From the NCBI GenBank assembly GCA_963818475.1, contig CAWFSF010000006.1, positions 1,536,001-1,600,000 on the forward strand: a stretch of 64,000 nt of DNA, in the 5' to 3' direction. Under the pieces are notes generated by a model that did not search any database, was not told where the DNA came from, and saw nothing but the letters and a program-made list of their open reading frames with translations. The stretch comes from Nitrospirota bacterium (GTDB taxonomy: Bacteria > Nitrospirota > UBA9217). Shown one piece after another: positions 1,677-42,604 of this stretch (positions within the stretch are counted from its first letter, which is position 1; the number at the start of each line of letters is the position of its first letter). A program made the translations under genes and the position numbers.

Positions 1677-1755
1677 TGTTTGAACTTCAGGCAGGCACGA
1701 CAATGAGGTGGTGCGGCAGCAGCTTCAGCTCGAAGCAAGATCAGCAGTGGATGAT

Positions 1756-6994: not shown

Positions 6995-7021
6995 GGAAGG
7001 GCTTTAATGATAGTATACGGT

Positions 7022-7108: not shown

Positions 7109-7126
7109 TGCTATGTAATTGAAGGT

Positions 7127-16576: not shown

Positions 16577-16760
16577 ATGGTTTAAAGATGCTCTCCATTC
16601 ACGGTCCACTGGCGTTCTGTGATCGCAACAAGCTTGCAGGGCGGGTAGAACTTTATGGTGTATGCGAGGTGCATTCCTGTCCGAAACCGTATAGGACCGT
16701 AGAGGGTTAGGTTTGACCGTTTTGGGCACGGGACATGGAGTACTGACATCACGTACATGA

Positions 16761-16792
16761 GAAGGCGGGCCAAGTGGCCCGCCTTCGTTTTT
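16761..16792 (+). terminator. Intrinsic terminator
   Basis: gaaggcgggcca-ag-tggcccgccttc followed by gttttt. Confidence 0.75.
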
Positions 16793-16835
16793 AGAACGAT
16801 GTCATAACAGGTTGCCGTACCAGCCAATCCTTAGG

Positions 16836-18240: not shown

Positions 18241-19623
18241 CTAGCCTCCGGGCAGGAAATCAATCGGATACAGAATGGTGGTCTTGGAAACCTTCTCCTT
18301 CGGTCCGAAGTTGAACTTCTTGACACGCTCCACGATCTGGGCCACCAGCTCCGGCGAGGCCAGATCGTTCGACTGCACCGTACATGCGGAGACCTCGCCA
18401 CCCGGCTCGATGGTGATGCGCAGTATGATCTTGCCGCGCAGGGTCGGGTTCTTGCGTAATTCGGCATTGTACATCCGATAGAGCGTCGCCTTGTATTTAT
18501 CGAAGACGATCTGGATCTCTTCGTCGGTTCGTGCCGGTCCGGGTCCGGAACTGAGCGGCCTCGCCTCTTCCGTCAGCCCCGCAACCGTACTTTCTACCCT
18601 TGTAAAACCCACACCGCCGATACGATTGCCATTGCCGCTGCCGATATTGCGGCTGACTCCGGCATTGCTGATGCCACCACTGCCGCCGGAGCCGCCCGTT
18701 GACGGCATAGCGACTATTGATCGGCTGGCCCGGGCCTGACCTGCCGCCACGGGCGACTGGTTGCTCAGACGCGCCTCAGCGCCGAGCCGCGCAACGGGAG
18801 TTTCATCCATTAGATCTTTAAAGCTCTCCTTGAAAGCCAGAACCCCCGTGCTCTCTGCTTTTTTACGCGCGGCCTGTGTTTCTTCGGTGGTTGGTTTGGG
18901 TTGGTCTTCCTGCTGTTTCTCCGGCGCCTTTTCCTGATCGGGCTTCTTTTCTTCCTTGGGGCGTGGCGGCTCAGGCTTGGGCGGCTCCTTTCTCAGCAGA
19001 GAGACCAGACGTTGCGGAACCACAGCCACGACCGGGCGGACCGGCGGCGGCAGTTTCCACAGGCGCATCAGAGTGCTGAAAAAGAAAAAGAATAACAAAG
19101 CGACAAGCAAGGCCCGGCGGAAGCGTCTTTCGCTCTCGGCGTCTTTGGTCCAGGGCATGATCATCGCGCGATAAGGAACGGACGAAATCTCCCGCTCTAT
19201 GACGTACTCTTCCTGGCGCCGTTCTTCACGGGCGTACGCATCACGTACTTCTTCGTCGAGGATGTCCAGCTCATCCAGGCATCGGTTGATCTGCCCCTGG
19301 AGAGATGCCTGTTTTTCCAGAATCCCGCTGATCTCCCCCTCAAAGCGGGCAACCCGGCTCCTCGCCCGTTCCAGGTGTCCGGCGACATTTTGGGCCTCCG
19401 CGACTCCTTCCCAAAAGAGTTCATCCGCTTTCAGTTCCCCCAGCTTGTCGAGCGCATTGCAGACGTCCCGCAAGGCATCGAACCGCTGTCTGTCGGCGGA
19501 AAACGTTTCCAGCTCTGCCTCTACAGCGCGCAACTCGCCTTCCAGCACCTCGTGTTTTTGCCGGGTTTGCTCGATCTGTGCGTTCAGCTGCGCCAATTCC
19601 TCTGCTAACATGGATGTATTCAC
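18241..19623 (-). CDS. AgmX/GltG-like TonB-type protein with N-terminal coiled coil
   Basis: Coiled coil, one TM, Pro/Lys/Glu linker, Gly-rich spacer, C-terminal RTDEEIQIVFD...YNAELRKNPTLRGKI...FNFG...YPIDF (AgmX/PglI C-terminal type). Confidence 0.85.
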   Translation of the reverse strand: MNTSMLAEELAQLNAQIEQTRQKHEVLEGELRAVEAELETFSADRQRFDALRDVCNALDKLGELKADELFWEGVAEAQNVAGHLERARSRVARFEGEISGILEKQASLQGQINRCLDELDILDEEVRDAYAREERRQEEYVIEREISSVPYRAMIMPWTKDAESERRFRRALLVALLFFFFFSTLMRLWKLPPPVRPVVAVVPQRLVSLLRKEPPKPEPPRPKEEKKPDQEKAPEKQQEDQPKPTTEETQAARKKAESTGVLAFKESFKDLMDETPVARLGAEARLSNQSPVAAGQARASRSIVAMPSTGGSGGSGGISNAGVSRNIGSGNGNRIGGVGFTRVESTVAGLTEEARPLSSGPGPARTDEEIQIVFDKYKATLYRMYNAELRKNPTLRGKIILRITIEPGGEVSACTVQSNDLASPELVAQIVERVKKFNFGPKEKVSKTTILYPIDFLPGG

Positions 19624-19633
19624 GGCAGCCCCA

Positions 19634-20132
19634 CTATCTTTTTGCTTCCTTCTGGACGACGGCGAGGGAAATCTTTCCGTATCCAGAAGCCGTGCAGGTC
19701 GACATTATTTTTTTAAGCACTTTGAACGGAATCGTTTTATCGGCAAGGAGAGTGATTTCCTTGCTTTCGGCAGCCGTCTTGGTGCTTGTCTCGATAACAT
19801 TGCGAAGCTGTTCCAGTCGCTCTCTTAGTTCATAAACTATCCCGATTGCTGTCATCGAGAAGTTTGGGGGTGCTGATCACGGCTTCGCCCTGAACCATTA
19901 CTACTTCGGGGGTGACCACGATCGTCACTGTTTCCCTTGGCTTGGTCTCGACAACGGAAGCGGGCAGCGTGATCTGCGCTTCCGGCATAGTACTGTTGAA
20001 TGAGTGAAAAAGCAGAAAGAACACCAGAACGCAAAGAACATCCATCATCGGTATCAGGTTTATGCCGAGACCTGCAATATGGCCTTTTCTGTTGTTACGC
20101 TCCATCCGTTTCATACGTCTGCTTTCTTTCAT
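19634..20132 (-). CDS. ExbD/TolR-family protein (AglS-like; frameshift near 19845)
   Basis: INLIPMMDVLCVLVFFLL with TM Asp; ITLLADKTIPFKVLKKIMSTC. Confidence 0.85.
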
Positions 20133-20631
20133 GGTGCGTCTCCTAGGGATATCTTCGGAAAGAGAACTATTTTGTTGATCTCTTTGCTCCCTTCCGCCCG
20201 CACTTCGGCGCCACGAACCGCATCCATGACCTGGATCAGATAGTCGTATTCGATCTTCGGCTCCATCAGAATCGTCGCGTCTTCCTTCTCCGGATATTGG
20301 GCCTTCAGGCGAAGGAGCATTTTGGACAGCAGCTCAAGATCGTATTTATCGTCTTTTTTCGGAATCGCGGCCTCCACGGACGACCCGTTGGCAATTTCCA
20401 GTCCTGCCTTGCGGACAATCACCTCGATGGCGAAATTCGGCTTGCCGGCCGCTCCGCCGGCGTCGGTCGGGACACTCAATTCCTGGATCGTAATGCTCAT
20501 AAAGACGGCAGAGATGAGCAGAAAGACCACCAGAACGGTAAGAATATCCATCATGGGTGTCAGGTTCAAGACTTCCATGATATCCGTAGCGACCTCATTC
20601 TTTTCTTTCTGTTACGATATCGTCTCGCCAT
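20129..20631 (-). CDS. ExbD/TolR-family protein (AglQ-like)
   Basis: LNLTPMMDILTVLVVFLL, YDYLIQVMDAVR, LFPKISLG; 5' end frameshifted. Confidence 0.85.
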
Positions 20632-20640
20632 GATCAGCTC

Positions 20641-20692
20641 CTGTCAAATTGGCGCTTGGTCAAACTGGAGGACTGTCAAATTGGCGCTTGGT
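20641..20692. repeat. 20-bp direct repeat at the 3' end of the ExbB-like gene
   Basis: ctgtcaaattggcgcttggt at 20641-20660 and 20673-20692. Confidence 0.85.
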
Positions 20693-21321
20693 AAAATTGG
20701 ACATGGTATTGAGCGCCTTTACCGATGCCATCTCCAGGCTGTTCACGATCTGACCCGTGGCTGTTGTCAGGCGGGCATGGAGCAGCAGAAGCGGGATCGC
20801 GGCCATCAGACCAAAGGCGGTGCAGTTCATGGCCTCCGAAATGCTGGCCGCGAGCAGGGCGGCCTTCTCGGCGGGGCTCGCACGTGGCAACCGCGCCGAA
20901 GGCCGTGATAAGACCCATGATGGTGCCGAGCAGTCCGAACAGGGTGGCGATATTCGAGAGCAGCGCCAGGTACGGTGTGCGCTTTTCCAATTGAGGAACG
21001 ATCTCCATCATGCTCTCTTCCATGGCGATTTCTATGTCTTCCCGTCGCCTGACCGCCCCCTGGCGCGCCAATCCCATCCCCAGCATTTGCGCCATACTGG
21101 ATTTGTCCTCGTTGACCATTTCCCGGGCCTTATCGAACTCTCCCTTTTCCATCACCGGATACAGCGAGTCCCATATTCTTCTGGTTTGCGTCCTGGATGC
21201 GTTTCAATTGAACCCAGCGTTCAAACGCGATGGCCAGACCGACCGCAAGCACGAGTAGAATAGGGAACATGAAGAACCCACCCGTCTGAAAAAACCTTAC
21301 TATTGCATATACGAATCCCAT
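20660..21321 (-). CDS. MotA/TolQ/ExbB proton channel (AglR-like; frameshifted)
   Basis: GGFFMFPIL...AIAFERW, ATLFGLLGTIMGLITAF, ISEAMNCTAFGLMAAIP. Confidence 0.88.
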
Positions 21322-21358
21322 CTTTTTTTCCTCCTTTTTCACTAACGAGACAACGAAG

Positions 21359-21673
21359 TTATTTTTTGGTACTGACCTCGAAAAAATCCAATTGCCGCAT
21401 AAACACATCTCGATCCACGGGCATATCACTTTCGGTTAACATCATGTTCAAACTTGTCTCCACACCGATTTCAGAGCTTTTCCAGGGTACGATATACAGG
21501 GCTTTCGGGGCTTCATCGTTGCCGACGATGGACATGCCCGAAAGTTCTTTGGCCGCCGGTTCCTTGTCCTTGGCCGCCGTCCATGGCCTTGGCCGCCGAG
21601 CCATGTCCTCGGCCATGGCCGTGCCGAGCAGCGCCAGAAGCAGACACAGCCAAAGCAATAGATTTCGATACAT
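21359..21673 (-). CDS. Small exported protein (GltF-like)
   Basis: Signal peptide; GMSIVGNDEAPKALYIVPWK; lies between the TPR lipoprotein and the ExbB-like gene. Confidence 0.6.
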   Translation of the reverse strand: MYRNLLLWLCLLLALLGTAMAEDMARRPRPWTAAKDKEPAAKELSGMSIVGNDEAPKALYIVPWKSSEIGVETSLNMMLTESDMPVDRDVFMRQLDFFEVSTKK

Positions 21674-21694
21674 ATTCCCTCCTTCCTTTTTTGC

Positions 21695-22379
21695 CTAATG
21701 CCCGACCGCATGCGCAGCTCGGCGATCCAGATCTTGACCTGCGCGTCCGCGGGCATCGCCTCGCTGTAAATCTCGAATTGTTTGAGCGCGCATTCCGGAT
21801 CATTCAGATACAGATCGCAGAGGATCCCGAGATTTCTATGGAGCGGGAAGATAGTCCGGAAAACTCGCGATCGCCTTCTCATAGATCTCCCGGGCCTCGT
21901 TGAAAACGGCCGTTCTTGCGAAGCAGCAACCCATATTCATTACTGGCCACCGGGTGATCGGGAACCAGCCCCAAAGCGGTTTTGAGGTGCTGCTCGGCCG
22001 GCTCCAGCTTTCCGGTCCGCATGATAGGCCACCGCAATGTTGATATATGGCGCCGTGACGCCCGGTGACCGCTCGATCACCTTTGTCAGAAGTTCGATGG
22101 CCTTGTCATTTTTCCCGTCGTTCATCATGGCGACGGCGCGCTCGAATTCGCCGCGCGACTCAGCATCCATGCTCGGGTTTTCCCGTGATGACGAATCCTT
22201 GCCGCCCATCTTCGAGCCGTCGCCACGGATGGTCCCTGAACGGATGGTCCTTGATCTGCAACGGGCTGCTGCGTGACCTTGGCGTTGGTAGCGCACCCGG
22301 AAAAAACCGCGAGTACGATCACCAGGGCCACCCACCCGGCCCGCTCTTCGGACTTTCGACCGCCATACCAGCTCTGCAT
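21695..22379 (-). CDS. TPR lipoprotein (GltE/AglT-like; frameshifted)
   Basis: Lipobox VFSGC; FERAVAMM, PYINIAVAY, HRNLGILCDLYL, VKIWIAEL. Confidence 0.7.
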
Positions 22380-22450
22380 TCTTGACCTGCATCGCCCAGC
22401 TCCCTGTCTCGTTCATGTCAACCCTGATGAAATCGTAATAAATCAAATTA

Positions 22451-22520
22451 GCCACGGAGTCAAGGAAGAAACCGTATAATCTACTTAAATCTTTTCTCCG
22501 TATCTCAGTGTCTCCGTGGT
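22451..22520. repeat. Intergenic inverted-repeat element (ccacggag type)
   Basis: gccacggagtcaagg ... ctccgtatctcagtgtctccgtggt; related to the 48830 element. Confidence 0.6.
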
Positions 22521-22550
22521 GGATCATGACTTTTTACGAGACGATCAACC

Positions 22551-25500
22551 TTATTCGACCTTGTCAGATGGTGCACCCTTGTTGCCGTTGTCGTCCACTC
22601 CCGGCGCCGCTTCTTTGGCCTCATCCGGTTTGGCGGCCTGCGGCGGCTCTGCGGCTGGCTCCGTTTCCTGGGCCTCAGCCGGCTTCGCATCCTGCTTCGC
22701 TTCTCCGGCCTGCGCCGCCGCCCCTTCGGGCGCCTGCGGCGCGGGCGGCTCCGGACGTTCAATGGCGAACATGTAACTATCCAGCGAAGCGATGACGGGG
22801 CTCTCCTCTTCCGGCTTGTCGTAGCGGGCGGGAACGAACTTGGCCAGTTTCTGCAGACTCTTGTCGATCCACTCGTTGTAAACACCGAGGGAGATCAGCT
22901 CGAGATTGCTCTTATGCATTGCAATGGCCTTCTCTTCGAAGGGATAGGCCTGCTCCTCGATGGCCAGTTCGTACTCTTCCCGTTCCAATGCGCTCAGTCC
23001 TGCGGGACGTTCGGACTCCTTCAGGTCCTTGCTGAAGTGGGCATAGATCTCGGCCAGATAGAAGGTCGCCGCGGCGGTGACCTCACCGACTTCATAATCG
23101 AGAAGTTTGTTGAACTGCTGGGTCGCCACCTTCATCAGCTCCTTCTTCTTGCGCAGGTTGGCCTCGAAGGGTTCGACCAGTTTGACCCCGGCGAACTGGT
23201 CGAAGGTTTGCTCGGCCAGAACCAACGCGGCTTTGCCGGCAAGATAGCGGGTCCGCGGCGTACGCTCGCCGCCGGCGCCCGCATCAATGGCGACGATCTG
23301 CCTGAGCTCGGCGAGATAGTTGTCCCGATCGTTCTTCTTCTTCAGAGATCCGCGATTTTGTTGCGCGTTTCCAGGTTGGGTTCCACCGGATGCGGGAAAT
23401 AATCCACATAGCGCCGGTACACCTCGAGCGCGCGGGCCTGGTTGCCCGACCTTTTCATGCAATTCCGCCGCGATCAGCAGCGCCTCCCGCCTTACCTCAT
23501 CATCCTGGGATTCTCTTTCTATGCGTTCATATTCATCGGCCGCGAGGGAGAGCTGCCCATCCTCGCGATAGACGTAGGCGATCTTCTTGGTCACCTCGGG
23601 CTGCAGTGCGTGTCCGGGGAACAGGTCCCGGAAGCCCACCAGCACAGCCGCCGCCATCTTCCAGTCCTTGAGCTGGATCAGGGCGGCGGCCGCATCGTAC
23701 TCCGCGGTCACCCTGATCTTGGAGGTCGGGGCCATACGCCCCACCCGCAGGAAATGCTCCGCCGCTGCCCGATAATCCGCCGGCGCATTCGCCTGTTCGC
23801 CCTGCTTGTAAATCGCTGCCGCAAGATTGTCGATCAGGGCATCGCGGCTTTTGTCCCCGGCGGGGAGCAGCGCCAGCACCTTCACGTAAGCGGTTTCGGC
23901 TTCGCTGTAGCGATGCAGCTCGTAGGATGAGTGGCCGACCACCAGCCAGGCTGCGCGCACGACCTCCGCCTCGGCGCCGGGGAATGCCTCGATGAAGCTT
24001 GCGTGCGGCAGCCACCGCCGGTTCATAATCCCGCATGTCGTACAGATCATCCGCGGCCGCCCCCAGAACGATCGCCGCCTTCTCGTGCTCCGGATAGGTG
24101 TCGGCAAACTTCAGCGAGCTGCGTACGACCTCCCGCTTCACCTGATCTTTTGCCGCGGGCGCAGCGCCGGCGAGGTGTTGGCGATAGGCGTAAATTGCCG
24201 CGTAGCCGGCCTGCGAGGACTTTTCGTGGCGCGGATATTCATAGGCGGTCTTCTCGTATTCCACCGCCGCCAGATCAAAGGAGCGGTTTTCCAGCAACAG
24301 ATCCGCCAACATGATAATTGATGGCCGGCGATTCGGGGTCCATCGGGAAGGAGGTGAGGAATTCCTCGATACCAGTGCAGCGCTTCTTCGAAGTTCGTCT
24401 TTTTTTCCTTGATCTGCTTCGGGCTCTGGTAAAGCGCGTGATAATGCTTGGCCAGGTCGGTGAGGTTCGTTTTGAGCCAGGCCAGAACTTCCGGACGGGC
24501 GCCCGGTTCGAAATGCTTCCAGTATTCGGCCTTGAGCCCGTAGTTGTCGGCAAATTGCTTTTTCGCGTCAATGACCAGGCTGGGGAACGCCGCCGGCAAG
24601 ATGGATTTCGATCACCCGCATGTGGAATTGCGGCGATACCTTGTGGAACGGATTGCGGCTGACAAAGGCGTTGTAGGCTGCAGCGGCGTCGCTGTAACGG
24701 CGTTTGTCGAAGTAGAATTCCCCGAGGTTGCTGTAGACGCCGTCCTCGTAACTGCGCTTGCCGTGGCGGGTGAAGTACTCGACCACGGAGTCGGCGCCGC
24801 CGAGGTTGGAAAAGCTCAGGCTGATGACCCGGAAGGTGTCATCGATGCGCTTGCGTTCCGGCTCGTCCGCGGTCTGGGCAAAGTCGTAGCCCACCGACAC
24901 CTTGTGGTCCAGCAGCGCAATGAACCGGTGCAGGGCCTCGTCATAGAGTTCCTGCTTGTAAAAGGTCCAGCCCAGCTTGTACAGGGCGAGCTCGTAGAAT
25001 AGGATGAAGAGACACCCATGGTCACGATGCTGCCGTAGGCCTCCTCGGCATCCAGGTAACGCCTGCGGGTGAAGAAGTATTCGGCGCGCCGGAACTGCAC
25101 TTCATCGATATATCGGGACCGCGGGATAGTCGCGCACCAGCCGGTCCATGACCGCCATGGCCTCCTCGATCTGCCCCAGTTCCTCATAGGCGCGGGACAT
25201 CTGATACAGCACCTGGTCGTTGCGCTCGTACAGGGGATAATCGTTCAGCAGTTTCTTGTAGAGCGCGATGGCCTCACGGGCGCCTGCCCGTTCCAGGTCC
25301 TCGGCGCCGCGACAAGGCTCCGTCCGCAGCCGCCGCCGTGCCGGCCACCGGCGCGCTCTGGGTCGCCCTTTTCTCAAAATCCGCCTGCGATTCGCCTGGC
25401 ACCGGGTTCCTGCGCCGGTGCAGGACCAGAGGAGCCGCGCGGGCGCGACCTCCGGACGCGCCGCGCGTTCCGGAGGAGGCAACGCAGCGGCGGAGACCCG

Positions 25501-25788
25501 GCGGTCCGCTGCGGCATCGCCGGAAAGAAGGCCATATTCCCTTTCGATCTTCAGGTCTGCCAGGCGACGAATCGCCTCCGGCGACAGGGCCGAGTCCGGC
25601 GTTTCTTCCAGAAAGCGCCGGTAACCCTCCATGGCTTTCTCGAGCCCGCCTTCGATCTTCTCTTCCTTGATTTCGATCTGCATGTTACGCAACTTGGCAA
25701 TCGTATCCTTGCCGCCGCCCGACTGACAGGCGGTCAGGAGCAGCGGCAGCGCGAGCACGCTCCATCGAAGACAATTCGTTGTCCTCAT
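22551..25788 (-). CDS. Large TPR lipoprotein, ~1050 aa (GltD/AgmU-like; frameshifted)
   Basis: Lipobox LTAC; TPR array (DQVLYQMSRAYE, EVQFRRAEYFF, AEYDAAAALI); C-terminal LEREEYELAIEEQAYPFEEKAI...PARY. Confidence 0.75.
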
Positions 25789-27685
25789 TGCTCGGCCCTC
25801 TTCCGGCGCTGGGCCTTGCTGGCACGGTCGTAGCTGTCCGCCATGGCGAAGCGCGCCTTGATCTGGAATTCGTCAAGCCGGTCGCGGCGCTTGGTGAGTT
25901 CATTCACGGCCATGGTCTCGAGCATCTGCCCCTGACGTGCCATCAGTTCCCCCACTTTTTCCCGGGCGGCCGCGATCCGGGTCCGCTGGCGGCGGATCAC
26001 CTCGTCGTACCCTTCGTAGCTTTGCGTGGCGGCCTGGCGGGTACGCACAAAGGCAGTGTACTGCCTGTTCAGCAGGTCGATCACCTGGTTCAGATCGCGA
26101 AGGTTCTTGTGCGCCTCGGTAAGGCGCTGGTCATATTCCGTATGAGATGTTCCAGTCCAGCACCCCCCGCAGCCGCCTGATCCGGTCCTCGACGTCGTCG
26201 GGCGCGGCCGCGCCGTCCGGCGCGTCAGCGTCTGCTCCAGATGCGCCAATCTGTTCGCTGATGATCCGTTCCTCCGCGGTCGCCAGATAATCGGGGCGCG
26301 GCGCCACCAGCATGGCCTGCAGCCGTTGTTCGATCCGGTCCCGCTGCTCCAGGCGCAGCCGCATCTGCGAGTCGAGCCGTCTGAATTCCCGGTCGATCGC
26401 GGGAAGCAGCGGCTGGTAATACGCCCGGCGCTGCTCGATGATATCCTCGAAGGCGTCCAGGTCCCCTGACCAGACCTCCAGCTTCTTGCGCAGCTGCTCC
26501 AGGTCGAGATAGTTTTTCAGCGATTCCTGAAAATCATGGGAGGCCATCAAATCGAGCAGGTAGAATGTCTCGGGCGTTTCCGGCAGCTCGCGCAGCTTGA
26601 CGACCCAGTCGGCATCCTGTTTCAGCTCTTCCCGCACCAGGGCCTTGAGAAATTTGCCTTCGCGGATACTGCGTGATCGATGCGCCGAGCTTGTCGATCT
26701 TCCTTGCCGAACGCCTCCAGCGCCCTGCCATACATCAGTGCCGCCTTGCCGTACACGTTCGAGCTTCCCGTAGGCATAGGGGACGGCGAGCATGGCTTCC
26801 TGCACCGACGGAGTCCGTGACCTCGCGTTCGGCCAGGATGCTCCAGGGCACCAGGGCCTGTTCGAACCGTCCCTGAGAGGCGTCTGCCCAGCCCGAACCG
26901 AGCAGCGCCCGGTTGGAGAACGGCCCGCTCAGACGCACCCGGTCGAGCACCTGCTTGGCGCCCTCGAAATTCTTTTCACTCATCAGCTTGTCGCCGAGGA
27001 CAAGGTTCGACTTGTCCTTGATCGCCAGCGTGGCCGGATTGTCGCTCTCGATCTGGCCGGTACGGTCGAGATACTGGCGCCCTTCCTGCTCCTTCCCGCT
27101 CCTTGAGCAGCGCGATCCCGAGGTTGTACGTGGCAAAACCTTCCAGGCTCTTCGCACCTTGGAGGTCTTTCAGGATGCGGGCGGCATCATCGAAGCGGCC
27201 GTTGGCCATAAGGATTTGCGCGCGCAGGAATTCCAGATCATCGCGAATTTCCTGCGGGAACGGCGCCCCGGATGCGTTCCACGGCCTGCAGGGCATTCTC
27301 CGGCTGGTCTTTCTGGAAGTAGATCCGGGCCAGGCGGAAAATGGCCTCGTTGCGCACGGTCTCCTCGACATTGCCCTCGATCACCGCCTTGATGGCGCGC
27401 CCGGCGCGCTGGTGCATCCGGTAGAACAGTTCGAAATCACCCACGTCAAACTCGGCCTGGTCGACATGGTAGTAAAGCGAGTCGAGCGCGGGCTCATCGA
27501 GCCCGCGGTACTGCCCCAGTTCGGTGTCGAGCCGGGCAGATGGCCTCGAACCAGTCCCCCTGATAGGCGTAATACAGGGCCTCTCCGAAATAGAGGTCCT
27601 TCAGGTCTTTTGGCGTGGCTGTGCCGGCCGCCAGTGCAGGCGCTGCGAACAACAGGGAAGCCAGCAAGACAAGCAATCTGGACAT
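25785..27685 (-). CDS. Exported TPR/coiled-coil protein (frameshifted)
   Basis: Signal peptide, KDLYFGEALYYAYQG, NEAIFRLARIY, NRALLGSGWA, EAMLAVPYAY, C-terminal ARFAMADSYDRA. Confidence 0.7.
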
Positions 27686-27688
27686 ACG

Positions 27689-28215: not shown

Positions 28216-28244
28216 GGCTGCCTCCTGTAAATCAAAAGAGCATC

Positions 28245-28391
28245 TGGACGCGATTTACGCGGATAAACGCGGATTTAAAAGCCTGATTAAAAGCATGATG
28301 AATCCTTTTCTTGAATTAAATCATAAACAGAATCTTGATTTATCTGCGAACCTGCGTCGCCTGAGCGCCTCTGTGGTCATCTGCGTCCAAA
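28245..28391. repeat. Intergenic palindromic element, copy 1
   Basis: tggacgcgatttacgcggataaacgcggat ... atctgcgaacctgcgtcgcct...tggtcatctgcgtccaaa. Confidence 0.75.
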
Positions 28392-28398
28392 TGTCTAT

Positions 28399-33529: not shown

Positions 33530-33545
33530 ATCCTAAAAAAACATT

Positions 33546-33697
33546 TGGACGCGGATTTACCGCGGATAAACGCGGATGTTAAAGCTTGAATCAAGTAAGT
33601 TTTTAAATAAAGGCCAAATCATAAAAAAAGTTCTTCGCATCTATCTGCGCAATCTGCGTCGCCTAGAAGCCCCTACTTTTGGTCATCTACGTCCTAA
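33546..33697. repeat. Intergenic palindromic element, copy 2
   Basis: tggacgcggatttaccgcggataaacgcggat ... atctgcgcaatctgcgtcgcct...tggtcatctacgtcctaa. Confidence 0.75.
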
Positions 33698-33718
33698 TAG
33701 CCGTTTCTGACGGCTGGG

Positions 33719-36700
33719 TCACGGCGGCGAGCCCCGGCGCCAGAAGATCTCGGTTTCGATGGTGAGCCGATATCCGCCATCCCACTTGCCGGCGATCTCC
33801 TTCTTCAGCGCCTTGAGACGCTTCTCTACCAGACCTTCGTTCTCGACGTCCGCCAGGTACGACAGCCGCAGCACCGAAGGCGCTTTCCGCAATTCCTTCA
33901 ACAAAAGATCGATCCTCGGCTGCCACTGCATCCGCAGCTCCGTGCTCTTCGGTTCGAACGCCCCATCGGCGATATCCATGGACACCACGTGGTGGATCGT
34001 TGCGCCGAAGTTGAAGCGCAGCATTTTGCCGCGCGTGGCGCGCTGCACCCGCGGGTTTTCGGTGGTCACCCGATAGCCGGTGGGCAGGGTGCGATCGTCC
34101 AGCTTGAGGATGAAGTTGCTGCCGCGATTCTCGTCAGGGACCACCGCGCAGGTGATATGGAAGCGCCCGTGCTCGTCGGTGGTGGCGATCAGACCGCGTG
34201 CCGTCACCACGCGCACCCCGGCAAACCCCGTTCACCCGCATCCTGCTATCCGTTCAGATCGCGATCGTCGAACACCTTGCCGATCACGTCGGTGCAGTCG
34301 AAGGTCGGGTCGGGGATGACGCGCACGGTCGCTGTCGCCACCTCCGAGAACGGTCCGCCGGTGTCTGTATTGATCACCTGCGCCTGGTTGACGTACTCGC
34401 CTTCCGAGACGCCGGCGCCCACTACCAGGAGCAGCCTGATGGTGTGCTGCTGGTTATAGCCGATGGCGAGATTATTCCACACCAATTGACGGCCGTTAAT
34501 GACCGGCTCAAGCGCGGTGCTCGTCGATGCGGCTGGAGCCTTCCACATACTTGAACCCGGCCGGCATCGTATCGACGATCCCCAGAGGGGGCAGCGTGCT
34601 GCGCAGCGTGTTCTTGAAGGTGATCGTGTAGGGAACGAGCTGACCGCGGGTGACATTGATCAGGGGGCTCGTCTTCGTGATCGAGATCTTTTCCTCAACA
34701 TATGGATCGACCGGAATATGATTGTTGAAGATCTGGTTGTCATCGGGTTGCCAGTCGAATCCAACGTGAGGCGCAGGTAGTAGGTGGTGACCGCCCCCGT
34801 CGGCGCAGTCGCGGAGACCTGCGCCTCGCATTGATCCGTGGACGGAATGGCGTCATCGGGACAGACCGGTACTGAATAAGGAACCAGCGTTCGCTGCATC
34901 GAAAATGTTGCTCGGCAGGAATAGATCAGCGACGGCCCCGCCACGTATCCCGCAGGCACTGCCGTAACCGCGATGAGGTAGTCGCGCGCCGTCGGGACAA
35001 TTCTGGCTGACTGAAGTTCAGGTCGAACTTGTAAGTTCCGTTCGCCGGCGTCACCTGGTTCTGCTGAGACGGATCGACGAAGCAGCTCGCGGGCAAAGCG
35101 GTCCCCGTTGACGCCAGCAGCATGGTGAGTGTCACCCCACCCAACGGCTTGCGCGACACCGCATCGTAGACGACGCCGTTCGCCGGGATGACGGTTTGCG
35201 TCGGGTTCTCGGCGGGCAGCACGTTCAGATCATCGTCGCTCTTGATCGGCGTCGGCCAGGGACCGTGACAGCTCGGCCTGGTTCAGCACTACGGTCGCCG
35301 CTTTTGAGATCCGTCCTGAGGACAGCCTCGAAGACGATCGTCAGGGTTTCGTTCGCCTCGATATTAGCCGATGACGTTGAGCGTGGTGCCGTTGACTACA
35401 GCACTGACTCCTGTCGTCCCGGTCGAACTCGTGACAACGACATTCTGAATCGAACCCTGGAACCTCGGCATAGCGTTCAGGCGATCGATCTCATCGACCA
35501 GCGAGATATTTGCTACCCGAATACCAGTCGGGTTTTGTATGACGATGGTGTAGCGCAGCCGGTCACCCGGGTTCGCAATCGGTTTGTCCACGGTCTTCTG
35601 GAGCGTCACGACCGGAATCGGAACGGTCAGCGGCGGCGCAGCGGCCGTGGCCACGTAATCGTTGAGCCCGCCGATGCCGTCCGCGCCGGTGCGTTCATCG
35701 CTGTTCGCGCCATCGAGGCTGGTCCAGCGGACGGTCACGCTGTTGGTCAGCGTCTGACCGGCGCTGACCGTATCGAGCACCTTCACCTCATAGGTGATGG
35801 TGACCGTTGTCCCTTCAACGATGTCGATGTCAGCGGTCGGGGTGACCGGCCAGGCCCAGGTGAGGGTCTGGGCCGTGGTGCTGCCGTCGCCGGTCTGCAT
35901 CGGGTCGGTGATGGTATTGCCGGTGCCGTTGACCGTGGCACGTGCCGACCTGATAGGCCAGGCCCAGGCTCAGCATGTCGACGAGGCCGGCATCAAAGGC
36001 ATCGGAGAAGTTGGCGCCCGAGGCTGCCGTCAGGGTCACGGTGTAGGTCAGAATATCACCCGCTTTGGGTGGCGTCGTTGGACTCACGCTCTTGGTGACG
36101 GTGACGGAAGGCTCCACCACCGTCATGACGGCGGTGGTATTGCTGGCCCCCGACATCCGGGTGGCGGCATTACCGTCGATCTGGTTGTACGTATAGGAAG
36201 CGGTGTTGCTGAAGGACAGACCGGCATCGTTGCCGGCAACGTTGTTCATGCGCACCGTCACACTGACCACGATCTGTTCATTGGCCGGGATCTCGATGCC
36301 GTTGGTCGTGTCTTCGATAATTAGATCGGTACTGGTGTTGGTATTGACCGGCGTCCACGTCTGGGAACCAGAGACCTTGCTGATGCTGACCAGGGTCAGA
36401 TTCGCGCTGACCGCCCCGAGGTTGTCGAGAATGCGCACATCGTGCAGCGCCGCCGCCTGCGGGACAGCAGGCACGGTGATGGTGTAGGTGAACTCCTGGC
36501 CGATTGTTGCGGTCGTGCTCGCCGGATTCTGCTTCAGCAGCCCACCGGGCACAGGCGAGGTCAGGGTCTGCTGCGCCGTATTGGTCGGGCCATAAACCTC
36601 GCGGTCGGCAGCGCTGCCATTGGCCGGTACCGCCTCATCATCGAAGGAGTAATAGAGCGTTGCCTGGGCTGTGTTGGTCAGGGTCAGACCGGGACCGAGG

Positions 36701-39700
36701 TCCGCATCGGCCGTCACCTGATAGACCACGCGCAGAGTGTCGCCCGCCGGGATAGTGTAGGCATTGGCGACGCCGGAATCGAAGTTCCAGGTGGCGACAC
36801 CAGTAGTGGCATTGTAGACGGGGGCCAGTACCGGCAGGCTGGTGTTGGTGTTTACCAGGGTGATGGCGGTGGTGGTCACTCCGCCCTGCCGTAGACCTAC
36901 CGGCAGGGTATCCACCAGCACCGTGTCGTAGGCTGGCGCCGCGCCGCTGTTGAGGATGCTGACCGTATAGGTGATGACCTCGCCCGCGTTGATGACCGTA
37001 TCCCCGCCCGCCGCCGATGCGCTCTTGCTCACCGTCAGTATCGGCTGCAACGTGGTGACGCTTGCGGTACTCGGCCGCGTCACAAGATCCCCGGCGACGG
37101 TGTATCCGAGTGTGGCGTTGTTTGTCAGCGTCTGGCTTGTCGGCGTCTGCGCGAACGTATCGTTGTTCAGCACGCGCACGCGGTAGCGAAGCACCAGGAC
37201 GTCATTGGTCGGATTGCCGTCACTGGGGTTGACCACCGTACCCAGAGTCCAGGTAAGGGTCTGCGTGCCGCTCGGCGCAGGTGGTGTGGGCTGGACCGTG
37301 CCGAAGTAGGTGGCACTGACCATTCCCACATACTGAAGTCCCGTCGGCAACGTGTCGGTGACGCTGACATTCGTGTGGGTGCCTTCCTGCAAGCCCAAAC
37401 GCAACTCGTATTCGATCAGATCACCGATACGGACATTGGCATCGGCAGCAGTATACGTATCGCTCGCCCTCACCTTGACAAAGGCTGTGCTATCTCCGAC
37501 GATCAACGTGGTGCTGTCAGAAGCAACATAGTCGTTCGGCACGACGCCGGTTCCGCCGCGCTCATAGGCGGGGAAGTCGCCATCGAGACTAGTCCAGCGG
37601 GCGGTCGCGGTGTTGGTCAGCGCCTGACCGATCACCACGTCGCTGTTCACCAGCACATCATAGGTGACGGTGACCGTCGTCCCCGCCGTGATATCGAGAG
37701 CGCTCCAAGTGAGTGTCTGGGGGGTGCCGGTCACACTCGGTTCAGCGGGCACACCACTGATCCGCGCGGTCCCGGCAACATACGTCAGCCCCAGGCTCAG
37801 GGTATCGCTGAGCACGAGGTCATAAGCGTTGGAGGCCGGGGCCGGGGCAGCGATCAGGTTCACCGTGTACGTGAGAGTGCTCCCTGCTGTTGGCGGCGTA
37901 GCCGACGAGACGACCGTCTTGTCCACGGTAACTGCCGGTTCAGCGATGGTCAGTGCACCGCTGGTGCCGCTGGTCACTGCGCCGGCCGGAATGCCCGTAT
38001 AGGTATAGGATGCTGTATTGGTGAAGCTGACGCCGGCATTGGCAGTGGTGTTATTGGCCACGCGTGCGGTCAGCGTGATCACCGCCTGCTGGCCGGCAGG
38101 AATTGGGCCGATGGTGAGGCTTACGTTCTGGCCGGCCGTGTTGTCCGTCAGGGTGAACCGGCAGCGGCCACTGTGGCGCTCACATAGGTCAAGGCACTGA
38201 GTGCAGAGTGTCGGTGATGACCACGTTGCTGAGCGCGGCGTTGATCGGCGTGCCCGGCACGGTGATCTGGTAGGTCACCGTCTCGCCGATGGTCGCTTCG
38301 CGACGGCGACGTCAAGATCTTGGTCAGCGGCTGAACGATCACCTGGTTGGTCATCCAGACTTGTGCAGGGCGGAGGAAGCGTAGATGCGGCCATTCGCCG
38401 GCAGCGACTCAGTACTCGATGCAGTGTTGCGCTGTTGCTCCAGGTCTGGTCTGCGGCCGCGATGTCGGTATGGAAACCGATGGTGTAATCGATTGTCACG
38501 CACTGGCCCGGATTGACCGGTGTGCTGAGCACGAAGTTCATGGTGCCGCCGCGGCCGGCAGGCGGCGTATAGGTATAATCGGTCCCGGCAATGAGGGTGG
38601 TCCCGCCCACGGCCACCACCGGCGTGGTGATGCTGGTCTCATTCAGCTGGCTCGCCAGCAGGTCGGTAAGCTGGACATTGTAGGCCGGCGCCAGGCCGTT
38701 GTTGCAGGACGTCAGCTGGAAGTTCATTACATCGGTGGCAATGTTGACCTGGTACGGATCGGCCGAGGTACCGGCACCGGTGCGGCCGGTGCCCAGATCG
38801 ACCTTGGCTGATCGCGCTCATCTGCGGCTGACGCACGTCGACCCGCTCCGTGGTCGTCAATCGGGCGGGATAGACCGCCGGATCGCCGCCCGTATAGGAA
38901 AGCTTCGCCAGGTTGTCGAGCAGAATGGACGTGTCATAGCCCACACCCACCGGCGGCGCGTCAGTCACGACCTTCGCGACATACCGGATCACCAGGGCGT
39001 CGTCAGTCGATATGCCGTCCGGCGTGTTGATGATGTCGCCGAACTCCCAACGCAAGGTGCCGGTGGCGCCGGAGACCGGCTGTACCCCCAGGGTGTAACT
39101 GAAGTTCGGGCCACCGATGACGGAAAAGCTTTGCAGCGCCATGCCCACGGGCAGCGCATCCTCGACCACGACGTTCCGGGTCGTGTATTCCTGCATGTTC
39201 AGCGTCAGATCGTAGGTGACGGTGTCGCCGACGCGCAGAATCGGATGCGGTGCTGGTGGAAGGATCTCGGCATAGGAATCCGCGTAAACCGATTTGACGA
39301 TGGAGGTGTTGTCAACCGTGTAGACGGTGACCGACTGGCCGGGCCGGTGCAATAGTCGTTCGGCAGGGTTATAGTCGGACAGCCCGCGCCGGTGCGCTCG
39401 CGCCCCGGGACCGGATTACTGATCGGATCGATCGGATAGTCCTCATCGAGCGAGGTCCAGTCCACATAGGCGCTGTTGGTGAAGGAACTCACCGAGGAGG
39501 CGTCCACCACGGTCACCTGATAGGTGAGCACCAGCGACTGGCCGGCGGGAATGTCGAGACTGCCGTCGTCGTTGTCGCGGCCCCAGACCAGGGTGGTGCC
39601 GGAGGGCGTGGCGGGAGTTCGCGACAAAGCCGGTGACCGCGACGCTGTTGATCGTGGCCGTGGCGGAACCGGGGACCAGCGCTACGTTCGCCGGCAGGGT

Positions 39701-42174
39701 GTCGGTGATGTTGGCATCAAAGGCCGTGGAAGCGTAGAGGCCGCTGTTATTGGTAATCGTTATCTTATATTCGAGAATGTCGCCCACCGTGGCGGGATCG
39801 GTTGCCGGTTTGCCGGCAGGCGAGACAAAGCTCACCGTCTTGGCGGCGGTCAGGAGCGGTTCGACCACGGTCATGTTGGCGGTGGTGCCCGCGCCGCCGG
39901 CCAATTGCGTGCTATTGACGCCGTTTGCCCGGTTGTAGGTGTACTACGCGCTGTTGTTGAAGAACACGCTGCTCTGGTTGGGGGCGCTGTTCAGCAGCTC
40001 CACGGTGATCGCGATCTTCGCCTGGCCATTGGCAGGGATATCGATGCCGGTGACCGTGTCTTCAAGGATGAGCGAGTTGCCGGTGCCCGTATTGCTGAGC
40101 GCCCAGGCGCCGCCCGTTACCACCCGCGCGCTCACAAAGCGCAGGTTCGCCGGCAGAGTATCCAGGATCCTCACGTCGTACAGGGGCACGGCGGTCGGGG
40201 TCGCGGGCACGGTGATGGTGTACTCGAACCGCTCGCCGATCGTGGCGGTCGTTTTTGCTGGGTTCGCCTTCGCCAGCGGGCCGGGAATCAGGATCGTCAC
40301 GATGGTGGGATCTTCGTCGCCCGCCACATCGGGCGAGGCCACGCCGTTGACGTAGGGATCATCGCTCAGGGCGGTGAAGCCGCCGGCGGCGTTCAGGGTC
40401 GCCTGGTTGGAGACCGTGGCGCCGTTGGCAAGGCCCGATTTCAGGGTGATGTCGAACTCGACCACGAGCTGGCCCCCGACCTTGACATCCAGAGCAGGCG
40501 CGCCAGAGATCTGCAGCAGGCCCGAGGTGGAATTAAAGCTCCAGGTGGCGCTGTATCCGGGGGCCCGTCGCAATGCGTGACGATTGCTGAAACGTGGCCG
40601 GATCGAAGTAGGTCAGGTTCAGCGTGTCGTTGATCGTGACCGTATTGATCGTTCTGATCAACATTGAAGACGCGCAGCGTATAGCGCAGGGTGTCACCCG
40701 GCAGCCGCCGTGGTAGCGGGGTTCGCAAGACTGGTCAGGTTCTGGACCGTCTTCTCGAAGTAGTAGCCGTGCAGTGGCCGCCGTGACGGTCTGGCTGTCC
40801 TGATAGTCAATGAAGTCGCCGGCGTGCCGTCGGTGAGCGTTCTGGTCGAATTCGCGGCGGCCGGCATAGGTACTGTTCGCGCTGAACCACTGGGTGGCGC
40901 CGGCGACATTGGTAAGCGTTGCGCCGTCATTGGTGAAACCCGGGATCGAGCTGCGTCTGGTAGGTGATGATCAGGTGCTGCTCGGGTGCGATCGGGCCCG
41001 CGGCATCGGTCATGGTCAGGCTGAGCTGGCAACCGCTGTAGGAGACCGTGTAGTCGGTGCCCGGAGCCAATGTCTTGACCAGGGTGGTGCCGTCGGCCTG
41101 GACGATCCTGGCGCTGAGCGTGGCAGTGGGGTCGGTGGCGCACATGCCGACCGGGAGCTTGTCGGCGATCGTTGCGTTCCAGGCGTCGCCGCCGCCGCTG
41201 TTCTGGACATCGATGGTGAAGGCCGCTGTGTCGCCCAGGTTCAGGGCCGTCGCCGGGCTCGTCTTGTTGACCACGAGATCGGGCGCCACGATGGTCATCG
41301 GCGCAGAGATGCCCGACTCGCCCGGGAGGGGGTTAAAGAATTCGTTGGAATCCACGATGCCGTCCTCATCGAGATCGATCCACCGTGAAAATTGCCACTT
41401 GGCAGTGTTGGTGAACTGCCTCCCTGGCACGTTCGTCGGCGTGTCATCGAGGACCACCGTCACCTCGACCACGATCTGCTCCCCGGCCGTGAGATTGGGA
41501 AGCGTGAAGTGGAGGTTCTTATCGCCCAGCTACCCAGAGTTACTGATCGGCACCGGTGTGCCGCTGCCTTTGTAGTAGGCGTTCAGGCTTACAAGCGTGA
41601 GATCGACGATACCGTCCGACGCCCGTCGTGGTGAGATCGTCCCAGACCTCGAATGCTGCCCAGGTCGTTCGGTGACGGGTCGCTCGCCAACGGGAAAATG
41701 TCATGACCGGGATCGTGAGCGTGTAGGTGAAGGGCAGACCGATGGTGGCCGTGGATGCAGGGGTCTTCTTATCGATGGTCTCAGCGGGGATCATGATATC
41801 CTGGCATGCGCCGCTGAAAGCCCCCTCTTCGGGGAGTTAACTACCCAGAGCTTGTGATCGATATTGGAACACGCCATATTGCCGGCGAACCAAACGTTGT
41901 CGAAGACAATGAGATATATCGTGGGGTCATTGGTTTGAAAGTTGATGGTTGCGGTCAGCGGATTGGACTGCGGCCAGTTCTGGAACGTGCAAGTCGTGTC
42001 GATCGTGATCTGGACAGGAGAGGTGCCGAGAACATTACCGTCAATCACGCCGAAGTACGGGGCCTCGGAGCAAAATTTCTCCGCCGCCTGCGCGGAGGAG
42101 GCCACACCCAGCACCAGGGCGAAGAGGAGCAGCAGCGGGAAACCGAGCCTGGCGCCGCGTGCTGTCAGGGCCAT
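33719..42174 (-). CDS. Giant DUF11/isopeptide-repeat surface protein, ~2800 aa (many frameshifts, one in-frame TAG)
   Basis: Signal peptide (LLLLFALVLGVASSAQA); many K(T/S)V...G..LTYT...D.LP.GL.YV...TNTA repeats; C-terminal DCTDVIGKVFDDRD..GLIATTDEHGRFHITC and a degenerate OmpA-like tail. Confidence 0.8.
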
Positions 42175-42360
42175 ACGAAAACGTTCCCACTTCCAGGCCT
42201 TCCTGATCGAACACGTTCCCCGCAGCTTGCCGCGCAACGGCAACGCCGAGGCGACCCCAAGTACCTGGGCTGCTCGAACGAGAAGGCCTGTAAAAAATGA
42301 AATGATTATGTTTTTCAAATTGTTATGCACTATTTGGCTACAACGTTGGGTCACGAGTGT

Positions 42361-42416
42361 AAAAAAAAAGCCGCCAAAAAATAGTCCTGTCGTGACAGGC
42401 GCTATACTTTGGCGGC
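42361..42416 (-). terminator. Riboswitch terminator
   Basis: Minus strand gccgccaaag...tttggcggc followed by U9; the 5' arm overlaps the aptamer 3' end. Confidence 0.8.
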
Positions 42417-42523
42417 TCGACGGGCATGGAAAGCAAAGCTGGACCATCCTGCGTAGTCCTTGCTTTCTGTAGCCTCGGAACTCTGCGTCCCAAGGTTTCC
42501 CCTGGTTTGCTCTGAGCAAAGTT
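42406..42523 (-). ncRNA. GEMM-I (cyclic dinucleotide) riboswitch, A20 variant
   Basis: acuuugcucAGAGCAAACCaggGGAAAccuuGGGACGCAGAGuuccgaggcuac...augcccgucgagccgccaaagu; P1 ACUUUG/CAAAGU, GNRA-capped P2. Confidence 0.85.
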
Positions 42524-42575
42524 GAAAAATTATGAAATTGTCAAAGCAGCAAACGAAATCACTGAAATCTATACA

Positions 42576-42604
42576 ACTTTAGCATTATACTGCTTTGCTG
42601 TCAA
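42576..42604 (-). promoter_or_regulatory. Putative sigma70 promoter of the riboswitch leader
   Basis: TTGACA-17-TAAAGT with TGn extension, about 50 nt upstream of the aptamer. Confidence 0.55.

Follow-up and report, generated by a model that had tools for sequence, protein, structure and literature searches.

A cyclic-dinucleotide riboswitch-led gene cluster linking a giant DUF11 protein and an OmpA-domain barrel protein to an Agl-Glt-like core complex in a Nitrospirota genome

The 64,000-nt stretch of DNA analyzed here (the window) derives from a Nitrospirota bacterium (GCA_963818475.1) and corresponds to G000:C6:1536001-1600000 of the source genome assembly G000, which comprises 4.66 Mb in 7 contigs and is 91% complete, with 6.2% contamination. 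Its minus strand carries, from 42604 to 18241, a gene cluster made up of a leader and eleven collinear genes, which encode a giant DUF11 protein, an outer-membrane (OM) protein with OmpA-like domains and a block resembling the core complex of the Myxococcus Agl-Glt gliding machinery. As a reference we used the intact orthologous operons of three relatives, G014, G010 and G022; the eleven proteins of G014, placed on the window by tblastn, were all collinear with the cluster (11/11). The features of the cluster, with the frame changes found in the window copy, are listed below.

42604-42576, minus strand: promoter-like site (TTGACA, 17 nt, TAAAGT, with TG before the second hexamer), a consensus match only
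42521-42408, minus strand: GEMM-I cyclic-dinucleotide riboswitch aptamer, A20-type variant, by its match to RF01051
about 42416-42361, minus strand: intrinsic terminator hairpin followed by nine U, the expression platform, from sequence and fold
42174-33722, minus strand: giant DUF11/isopeptide-domain protein with a Sec signal peptide, about 2,800 codons, at least seven frame changes, collinear with the G010 giant
33514-28399, minus strand: OM protein with a signal peptide, three OmpA-like domains for peptidoglycan binding and, at the C terminus, a beta-barrel region of about 950 aa, no fewer than six frame changes, collinear with a 1,715-aa protein of G014
28215-27699, minus strand: exported protein of about 171 aa, of no known family, heading the core block, one frame change, by tblastn with G014
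27690-25785, minus strand: exported tetratricopeptide repeat (TPR) protein, about 629 aa, matching GltC in size and position, five frame changes, by tblastn with G014
25779-22551, minus strand: TPR lipoprotein similar in size to GltD (about 1,070 aa) and containing repeated YbgF/CpoB-like modules, one frame change, by tblastn, TIGR02795 and the lipobox in G014
22527-21697, minus strand: TPR lipoprotein, about 230 aa, occupying the GltE position, one frame change, by tblastn, NF033758 giving just 15.9 bits
21673-21359, minus strand: small exported protein of 104 aa, intact, by ORF (open reading frame) and tblastn with the 109-aa orthologue of G014
21309-20612, minus strand: TolQ/ExbB/AglR-like proton channel (231 aa in G014), two frame changes, 76-82% identical to G014, PF01618
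20578-20129, minus strand: TolR/ExbD/AglQ-S-like protein, intact, PF02472 with 55.5 bits
20132-19634, minus strand: second TolR/ExbD-like protein, one frame change, PF02472 with 32 bits and tblastn
19623-18241, minus strand: GltG-like TonB-family protein, intact, NF033768 with 63.9 bits against a cut-off of 40

The initial annotation of this DNA had described eleven co-oriented genes behind a cyclic-dinucleotide riboswitch leader. The list of genes and their order were confirmed by the collinearity with G014 and by the Pfam and NCBIfam matches of the window fragments, and the leader was confirmed as well: the aptamer aligns with the c-di-GMP-I model RF01051 (c-di-GMP, cyclic di-GMP) over its full length (1-87) with 50.4 bits against a gathering threshold of 35 (E 6.9e-07), in the company of the promoter-like site and the terminator. 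A row of intact, abutting ORFs was not confirmed in this sequence. At least 24 frame changes, at least 17 in the ten other genes and at least 7 in the giant, break 8 of the 11 genes and leave uninterrupted just three (3/11), namely the 109-aa gene (21359-21673), one ExbD gene (20129-20578) and the GltG-like gene (18241-19623).

Seven copies of the aptamer from four genomes (one in the window, three in G003, two in G010 and one in G009) have an identical 5' half, and their helices covary, with compensatory changes on both sides in 5 of the 24 predicted pairs. The terminator region folds with -73.6 kcal/mol (z -4.97), and the 5' arm of the hairpin is formed by the last nine bases of the aptamer, so that the two elements overlap at the aptamer 3' end; an inner hairpin of the terminator was also picked up separately. 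Because the terminator makes use of the aptamer 3' strand, the riboswitch is probably an ON switch, in which the presence of the ligand would allow read-through. All seven Nitrospirota copies present an A at the unpaired base directly 5' of the first G-C pair. We take this column to be position 20 of Vc2, an assignment that receives indirect support from the 'GGC' consensus of RF03167, which departs from RF01051 at the base numbered 47. In c-di-GMP-specific GEMM-I riboswitches, G20 of Vc2 reads the first guanine of the ligand; the change of G20 to A is the signature of GEMM-Ib, which binds cyclic GMP-AMP (cGAMP), and natural A20 aptamers can be bispecific (PMC6140456). Since all seven copies have an A in place of the G20 of the c-di-GMP-specific class, the ligand could be c-di-GMP, cGAMP or both, with 3'3'-cGAMP as a candidate.

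As regards the source of such a ligand, Hypr cyclases are recognized by the combination of Ser/Thr with GGDEF (PMC6456294), and none of the 23 matches to the GG[DE]E[FY] motif in the source genome, which is 91% complete, shows this combination; one match pairs Ser with GGEEF. The window itself encodes two GGDEF proteins, one with a PAS-GGDEF arrangement (413-1915, plus strand) and one with a GAF-PAS-GGDEF arrangement (11639-14242, plus strand), both with Asp at the base-reading position, which are possible local sources of the riboswitch ligand. Compared with known GEMM-I and GEMM-Ib riboswitches (RF01051, RF03167), including the cGAMP riboswitches of Geobacter, the leader is alike in the aptamer passing RF01051, in the terminator platform, in the tandem copies present in relatives and in the association with surface or attachment genes (PMC6456294). 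The difference concerns position 20, where the Nitrospirota copies carry A, whereas the Geobacter-type loci of the same module carry G.

The start of the giant gene was placed at the ATG preceding the signal peptide. Along its about 2,800 codons the window giant is collinear with the 2,247-aa giant of G010 (55-86% identity), and the C-terminal 500 aa are conserved with the giant of G014, which is 3,077 aa long. Fragments of the window giant match the Pfam family DUF11 with 83.5, 45.3 and 26.6 bits. In the G014 giant, DUF11 (PF01345) reaches 162.5 bits in six stretches, TIGR01451 238.6 bits and the isopeptide-forming fimbrial domain TIGR04226 137.9 bits, which places the protein among the DUF11/isopeptide-forming fimbrial repeat proteins, with predicted isopeptide bonds. 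The last 520 aa have a mean column identity of 59% across phyla, and the N-terminal repeats vary even within a family. Furthermore, the structure predicted for these 520 aa (mean predicted local distance difference test score, pLDDT, 78.9) consists of Ig-like domains followed by a small alpha/beta end domain and resembles the isopeptide pilins BcpA, SpaA and RrgB as well as a Gram-negative fibrillar-adhesin domain (9ifr).

The protein encoded downstream of the giant shows the elements typical of a peptidoglycan-binding OM protein of the OmpA family, an OmpA_C-like domain together with a beta-barrel. In the window fragments, Pfam detects OmpA with 60.2 bits in two stretches and OMP_b-brl with 30 bits; in the G014 protein, OmpA (PF00691) scores 73 bits, and the family consensus displays three OmpA-like repeats. 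For the C-terminal 976 aa of the G014 protein an all-beta structure is predicted (mean pLDDT 67.4, rising to 75-88 over the final 550 aa); residues 430-976 of the model contain about 30 strands. The comparison of this model by Foldseek and VIA-align returned LptD, Deinococcus SlpA, TonB-dependent receptors, ushers and porins, all as weak matches (template modelling score, TM-score, 0.15-0.28; Z 10-14 at a root-mean-square deviation of 5-19 Å). The assignment of the barrel to one OM family by fold was dropped, since only generic large OM barrels were matched, and on the predicted model the protein is a large outer-membrane barrel of no assignable family. As for TonB-dependent transporters, which combine a plug domain with a 22-strand TonB_dep_Rec barrel, no Pfam match to Plug or TonB_dep_Rec was obtained at E <= 0.001, and the structural matches to receptors were no better than those to porins, ushers and LptD. 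Moreover, at the same threshold neither the giant nor the barrel protein matched an autotransporter beta-domain, a POTRA-Omp85/two-partner secretion (TPS) domain or a type I secretion component.

Giant and barrel are tied to each other by gene order and by fusion. In all the barrel loci with at least 400 nt of upstream sequence (73/73; the scan that yielded the loci is described below), a giant ORF on the same strand abuts the barrel gene; L030, with 230 nt upstream, also shows the end of the giant, and the remaining six of the 80 loci have too little sequence. In L035, L038, L039 and L041, which belong to three Nitrospirota metagenome-assembled genomes (MAGs) from different projects, giant and barrel form one frame with no stop, and the second signal peptide is lost. 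A gene fusion of this Rosetta-stone type argues that the C terminus of the giant and the N terminus of the barrel protein sit together, and it is further evidence for a physical link between the two. The fusions retain the conserved motif at the mature N terminus of the barrel protein. This motif, an invariant Glu followed about 12 residues on by an invariant Trp, is conserved across phyla (L029 10001-10390 and homologues) and represents a candidate docking segment. A complex prediction of the GltC-like TPR protein, the C-terminal domain of the GltG-like protein and the 171-aa protein against barrel residues 24-80 gave a score of 0.00 with no control predictions run, a result that weighs neither way.

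Besides its orthologues, the barrel region has a family of paralogues, with frames of about 2,000 aa and 27-32% identity to its first 400 aa, at G000:C2:295006-295923 (minus strand) in the source genome and at G014:C9, G014:C1 and G007:C14 as well as in G011, G013, G016, G017 and G019. Shorter paralogue matches extend over 972 aa in G000:C2 and over 1,614-1,852 aa in G004 and G011. Such paralogues are common among the relatives, even in genomes that do not carry the module.

The core block is headed by the 171-aa gene, which leads it even in divergent and permuted loci. Its product found no Pfam, NCBIfam or Protein Data Bank sequence match and only unnamed Atlas clusters, and the 109-aa exported protein (104 aa in the window) likewise matched no Pfam or NCBIfam family. 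Pfam recognizes TPR domains in the window fragments too. In G014, the giant, the barrel protein, the 629-aa TPR protein and the two small proteins begin with signal peptides, and lipoboxes mark the other two TPR proteins, the larger of which (1,071 aa) is hit by TIGR02795 (YbgF/CpoB) in four stretches with 129 bits against a cut-off of 90.1. The channel protein contains a MotA_ExbB domain (PF01618; 46.1 bits in the window and 89.1 bits in G014), and the TolR-like orthologues of G014 (192 and 164 aa) both have a transmembrane Asp. In the GltG-like protein, a cytoplasmic coiled coil is followed by a single transmembrane helix, a long linker rich in Pro/Lys/Glu and Gly/Ser, and a C-terminal AgmX/PglI domain, for which NF033768 gives 60.9 bits in the 478-aa G014 orthologue, close to the window score listed above. 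A second protein with an AgmX/PglI tail occurs elsewhere in the source genome (G000:C2:110633-110887, plus strand, 62.8 bits).

According to Luciano et al. 2011 (PLoS Genet 7:e1002268; PMC3169522), the conserved core consists of GltC, GltD, GltE and GltG with AglR, AglQ and AglS; AglR interacts with GltG; GltF falls in a group restricted to Myxococcales and Bdellovibrio, outside the core; and the core has an unknown function outside myxobacteria, where it carries an extra gene. The cluster described here corresponds to that complex in its TolQ-like and two TolR-like proteins, in a bitopic GltG-like protein of the TonB family with an AgmX/PglI tail and in three exported TPR proteins clustered with the motor, as well as in the extra small genes without a Myxococcus homologue and in the range of its hosts, which includes Geobacter relatives and gamma- and betaproteobacteria (PMC3169522). 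The putative counterparts of GltC, GltD and GltE were judged by size (629, 1,071 and 230 aa), by position and, for two of the three, by their lipoboxes. What differs is the tie to the giant DUF11 protein and the OmpA-domain barrel protein, the frequent presence of a GEMM-I riboswitch and the host phylum, Nitrospirota; in addition, the FHA domain of GltG was not found in the GltG-like protein, which has a coiled coil in its place.

In the light of these data, the description of the core in the initial annotation is right as to GltD, GltE and GltG with AglR, AglQ and AglS and as to the unknown function in other bacteria, but it counted GltF, which is not a core protein, and omitted GltC (PMC3169522). 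By the same token, the name GltF-like given to the small protein rests on no test and is not kept. The profile searches that had been proposed against the Agl and Glt families bear out the likeness only for the tail (NF033768): the Myxococcus equivalog models remain far under their cut-offs, with 47.2 and 37.8 bits against 650 for NF033760 (GltG; alignment over model positions 336-642 of 650, the window protein reaching 37.8 bits over residues 220-453) and 15.9 against 225 for NF033758 (GltE). A match to GltJ concerns the tail only (NF033761, 28-35 bits against a cut-off of 450). GltA, GltB, GltF, GltH, GltI, GltJ, GltK and CglB found no match of their own among the eleven cluster proteins, to which this search was confined, and a profile search with the alignment of the GltG-like protein retrieved only close Nitrospirota relatives, annotated as TonB or by their AgmX/PglI tail, and did not reach the Myxococcus proteins. 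The cluster does not have the full make-up of a Tol-Pal system either, since the TolQ, TolR and TolA models stay below their cut-offs and there is no TolB or Pal in it, YbgF-like repeats being nevertheless present.

We scanned 185,579 species genomes with the alignment of the barrel protein, which gave 369 relatives, of which 80 full-length loci with 53-90% identity were kept. By the labels of their records they belong to Nitrospirota, Desulfuromonadales and Geobacter relatives, Desulfobulbaceae, Acidobacteria, Gemmatimonadota and many gamma- and betaproteobacteria. The initial annotation had named beforehand, as a finding that would speak against it, a failure of the giant to co-occur with the core in other genomes. 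Co-occurrence was instead found in 41 of the 80 loci, where the core block lies directly downstream of the barrel gene (all 14 from Nitrospirota, 23 from Desulfuromonadales or other delta-type groups, 2 from Acidobacteria, 1 from Gemmatimonadota and 1 from an Oceanospirillum MAG), and among 40 relatives of the source genome, where orthologues of the GltG-like protein are present in 9 and of the barrel protein in 8, with 7 genomes sharing both. In 33 loci, all proteobacterial, the core is not downstream within the 981-10,000 nt inspected, and 6 loci are too short. Among these 33, a GltG-like gene ends just before the giant in four, and a divergent block led by the 171-aa gene is seen in two. 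In five further proteobacterial genomes, a GltD-like homologue is always present (5/5), in three of them upstream on the same contig and strand, and these three, which are betaproteobacterial records, show the contiguous order 171-aa, TPR, TPR, TPR, 109-aa, TolQ, TolR, TolR, GltG, giant, barrel. Pair and core remain neighbors in at least three different gene arrangements and under five phylum-level labels. Wherever the sequence allows a judgment, giant and barrel protein occur together; they are fused in some genomes and persistently linked to the core, and we regard the window locus as one copy of an eleven-gene envelope module that has spread horizontally.

The riboswitch accompanies part of these loci. 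A covariance model built from the seven Nitrospirota aptamers and searched over 83 sources gave 20 matches, every one of them located 5' of a giant gene and co-oriented with it. The matches come from the window, L101 (= G010) and ten Desulfuromonadales-type loci, frequently with two or three copies in tandem. Rfam confirmed ten of the matches, in five Desulfuromonadales-type loci and with G at position 20, and Rfam riboswitches were also found upstream in G003, G009 and G010. In G010, a 183-aa Pal-like lipoprotein of the OmpA family is encoded between the tandem riboswitches and the giant (L017 12688-13239, minus strand). In G009 (L019), the riboswitch (10999-11110, minus strand) directly precedes the 171-aa gene and the core, with no giant or barrel gene nearby, and two cobalamin riboswitches adjoin on the opposite strand (11373-11557 and 16722-16930, plus strand). 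G019 has the core only, on a contig that stops just past the 171-aa gene.

Concerning the state of the window copy, the damage is local, since rpoB and rpoC of the source genome are open over about 8 kb and the flanks of the window carry ordinary long ORFs. Related contigs from four public sequencing runs were compared; they represent relatives and not the same strain (the best run contained 0.11 of the sampled words). In these contigs a single base of the window is absent at 20884, 22024, 24993, 30283, 30441/30442, 30771 and 33206; six of these seven differences, the exception being 24993, fall at or near frame-change junctions, all in non-homopolymer contexts. One contig, from run X2, also lacks 168 nt of 28228-28397, between the barrel gene and the 171-aa gene, which indicates that this spacer is variable. 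One RNA run has contigs over the locus, where DNA carry-over is possible. An IS-type (insertion sequence) transposase in two overlapping frames (16898-18092, minus strand; HTH_23/HTH_32, then an rve integrase core) adjoins the GltG-like gene and, together with a G+C content of 0.60-0.64 inside the cluster and 0.49-0.58 outside, suggests an acquired island.

These data can be read in two ways. The window copy could be a decaying array of pseudogenes, acquired horizontally and fallen into disuse, independently of what the module does elsewhere; at least 24 frame changes within 24 kb next to undamaged rpoB, rpoC and flanking genes speak in favor of it, as do several in-frame stops between giant segments of the same frame, the transposase directly downstream, the G+C contrast and the location of the extra bases outside homopolymers. 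We consider decay possible, but less likely than not. Against it, the seven best-supported indels (7/7) are all single extra bases in the window, a one-directional pattern typical of consensus error, and the identity of the fragments to G014 (53-82%) is similar to that of the intact G010 orthologues (57-80%). Broken matches at the same locus are also seen in other MAGs of few contigs (G003, L031 and L032), and many closely related variants that coexist in the runs would be able to spoil a long-read consensus locally. A local consensus failure over a strain-variable region is thus a plausible explanation, and the relatives G014, G010 and G022 carry intact operons in any case.

On the whole, we suggest that the module encodes a surface apparatus induced by a second messenger, in which the core complex acts on a giant adhesin held by the barrel, and we give this reading a probability of roughly 0.55. 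When the second messenger is high, the ligand would hold the aptamer 3' strand, the terminator would not form and the operon would be read. The giant would cross or plug the barrel, its conserved C-terminal module staying in the periplasm beside the OmpA domains and its variable repeats lying outside, so that the giant would act as a fibrillar adhesin held by the barrel. Proton-motive energy from the TolQR-like motor would reach this OM complex by way of the GltG-like arm and the TPR scaffold and could serve to export, tension, release or laterally move the adhesin; the motor may thus export, anchor or move the giant. The giant-barrel pair may moreover be the native OM output of an ancestral core that was later rewired for gliding in Myxococcus. 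A fuller version of the proposal would be an as yet undescribed OM display system powered by the proton-motive force, in which the giant is threaded through and held by a wall-anchored barrel of at least 30 strands and is exported, tensioned or moved by the TolQR/GltG/TPR machine under a cyclic-dinucleotide switch, ancestral to the gliding and spore-coat machineries of Myxococcus and serving attachment to particles in iron-, sulfur- and nitrogen-cycling bacteria of at least five phyla. Taken in its entirety this version is tentative, and we regard it as rather doubtful.

Several observations weigh against the reading of a second-messenger-induced apparatus. The Myxococcus equivalog models score far under their cut-offs, as reported above. 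The GltD-like gene or core lies on a contig separate from the giant-barrel pair in two of the five further proteobacterial genomes (L099 and L106), no barrel orthologue was found in G009 (95% complete), which has the riboswitch and the core, and G006 has a barrel fragment with no GltG orthologue found by the query used. G014 and G022 have no riboswitch at the gathering threshold and show AraC-type regulators instead, and the three betaproteobacterial loci gave no GEMM match. Furthermore, the window copy may be dead in view of its at least 24 frame changes, and the C terminus of the fused giants, being joined to the periplasmic OmpA region, leaves room for a wholly periplasmic giant.

The cases in which core and pair are unlinked (2/5 proteobacterial genomes, and G009) are what would be expected if the two were co-regulated but independent neighbors, i.e., a Tol-Pal-like block for envelope maintenance and a self-sufficient, motor-free adhesin of the autotransporter or two-partner kind, both serving the surface-attached state. 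The best named matches of the motor proteins, which are the TolQ, TolR and TolA models, and the 1,071-aa TPR protein, which exceeds the YbgF/CpoB cut-off (TIGR02795, 129 against 90.1), point in the same direction. This arrangement nevertheless appears unlikely to us, because adjacency that survives three arrangements and five phylum-level labels would be difficult to account for unless the genes share a function, the cluster has no TolB or Pal equivalent, and neither giant nor barrel protein has an autotransporter or POTRA/TPS domain (Pfam, E <= 0.001). The membership of motor and transducer in the ExbBD/TonB superfamily, the TonB-dependent receptors among the structural matches of the barrel and the many carriers labelled as iron- or sulfur-cycling bacteria could also recall an energized uptake system, with the barrel as a gate of the TonB-dependent type opened by the GltG-like arm and the giant capturing a polymer or a mineral-bound substrate. 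We hold uptake to be very improbable: the TM-scores are low (0.15-0.28), porins, ushers and LptD match as well, Plug and TonB_dep_Rec are without a Pfam match at E <= 0.001, a covalent fusion of giant and barrel fits an anchored passenger better than a capture protein, and three OmpA domains suggest a static, wall-anchored platform.

The fusions bear in turn on whether the giant is surface-exposed at all. Their giant C terminus runs on into the periplasmic OmpA region, no segment annotated as crossing the membrane separates the two, and the giant has a Sec signal only and no recognized OM secretion signal, which would suit a structural protein of the periplasm, beneath the OM, tied to the wall-bound OmpA domains, with the motor remodelling that envelope layer. 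Its domains, however, are typical of extracellular fibrillar adhesins and pilins, the combination of N-terminal repeats variable among close relatives with a conserved C-terminal module is the pattern of an exposed adhesin with a buried anchor, and an Ig-like stalk of about 3,000 aa would presumably far outspan the periplasm. For these reasons a periplasmic giant seems to us a distant prospect.

The barrel-held adhesin that we favor has partial parallels in known systems. In the Myxococcus model, GltC connects the OM proteins with GltD and GltG, and CglB, the adhesin displayed by the platform, is held by the GltA/B/H/K barrels (PMC11761067). The Agl-Glt gliding and Agl-Nfs spore-coat machineries share with the present module a TolQR-type motor, a TonB-like arm, a TPR scaffold and an OM platform presenting an adhesin (PMC11761067, PMC3858216 and a preprint on CglB). 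Different from Myxococcus, no equivalents of GltA/B/H/K, GltI/J and CglB were seen in the cluster, which encodes instead a single huge OmpA-domain barrel and, as the adhesin, a Sec-exported giant of about 3,000 aa. Since cytoplasmic track proteins are not encoded in the cluster, it gives no indication of directed gliding.

In the fused forms, the position of the passenger N-terminal to the barrel recalls type Va autotransporters, and a terminal module that is conserved and probably periplasmic, repeats directed outward and a cyclic-dinucleotide control of display recall the LapA/LapE system of Pseudomonas. The display of LapA is set by the LapD/LapG proteolysis switch. Compared with autotransporters and LapA, the barrel is far larger here, a dedicated proton-driven motor is encoded and the control is by a transcriptional riboswitch. 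The type IX secretion and gliding system (T9SS) of Bacteroidota consists of the GldLM motor, the SprA barrel and the SprB adhesin. Here the likeness is an analogy only, in the combination of an inner-membrane proton motor of the MotAB/ExbBD kind, a very large OM barrel and a giant adhesin; homology was not found, PorW/SprE giving just a weak TPR match (27 bits against a cut-off of 250), with no T9SS C-terminal signal. In the available parts of the literature consulted, which do not include the neighborhood supplement of PMC3169522, no description was found that links DUF11 giants or OmpA barrels with Glt/Tol-like clusters or GEMM riboswitches, and an article in MBE 2025 (PMC12204202) does not mention Glt.

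Since the core complex has been known outside myxobacteria since 2011 with an unknown function (PMC3169522), the locus and its relatives point to a concrete OM partner for it, the barrel-held giant, and to a concrete input, the riboswitch. The ancestral function of the motor becomes testable in culturable carriers. Those named in the records are Geomonas edaphica Red53, Geotalea sp. SG265 and Alkalilimnicola ehrlichii AK92, and Thiobacillus denitrificans is represented by a MAG. The module bears on the evolution of gliding machineries and may reveal a motor-assisted route for the display of very large surface proteins. Moreover, the A20-type aptamers of Nitrospirota hint at cGAMP or dual-ligand signaling beyond Geobacter.

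Two further features of the window lie outside the cluster. Just upstream of the promoter-like site, an intact gene (43528-46821, minus strand) encodes a 1,098-aa protein with He_PIG, Flg_new_2, SBBP beta-propeller and BACON domains, which is likely another surface protein. A thiamine pyrophosphate (TPP) riboswitch is found at 7011-7112 on the minus strand (RF00059, 66.2 bits).

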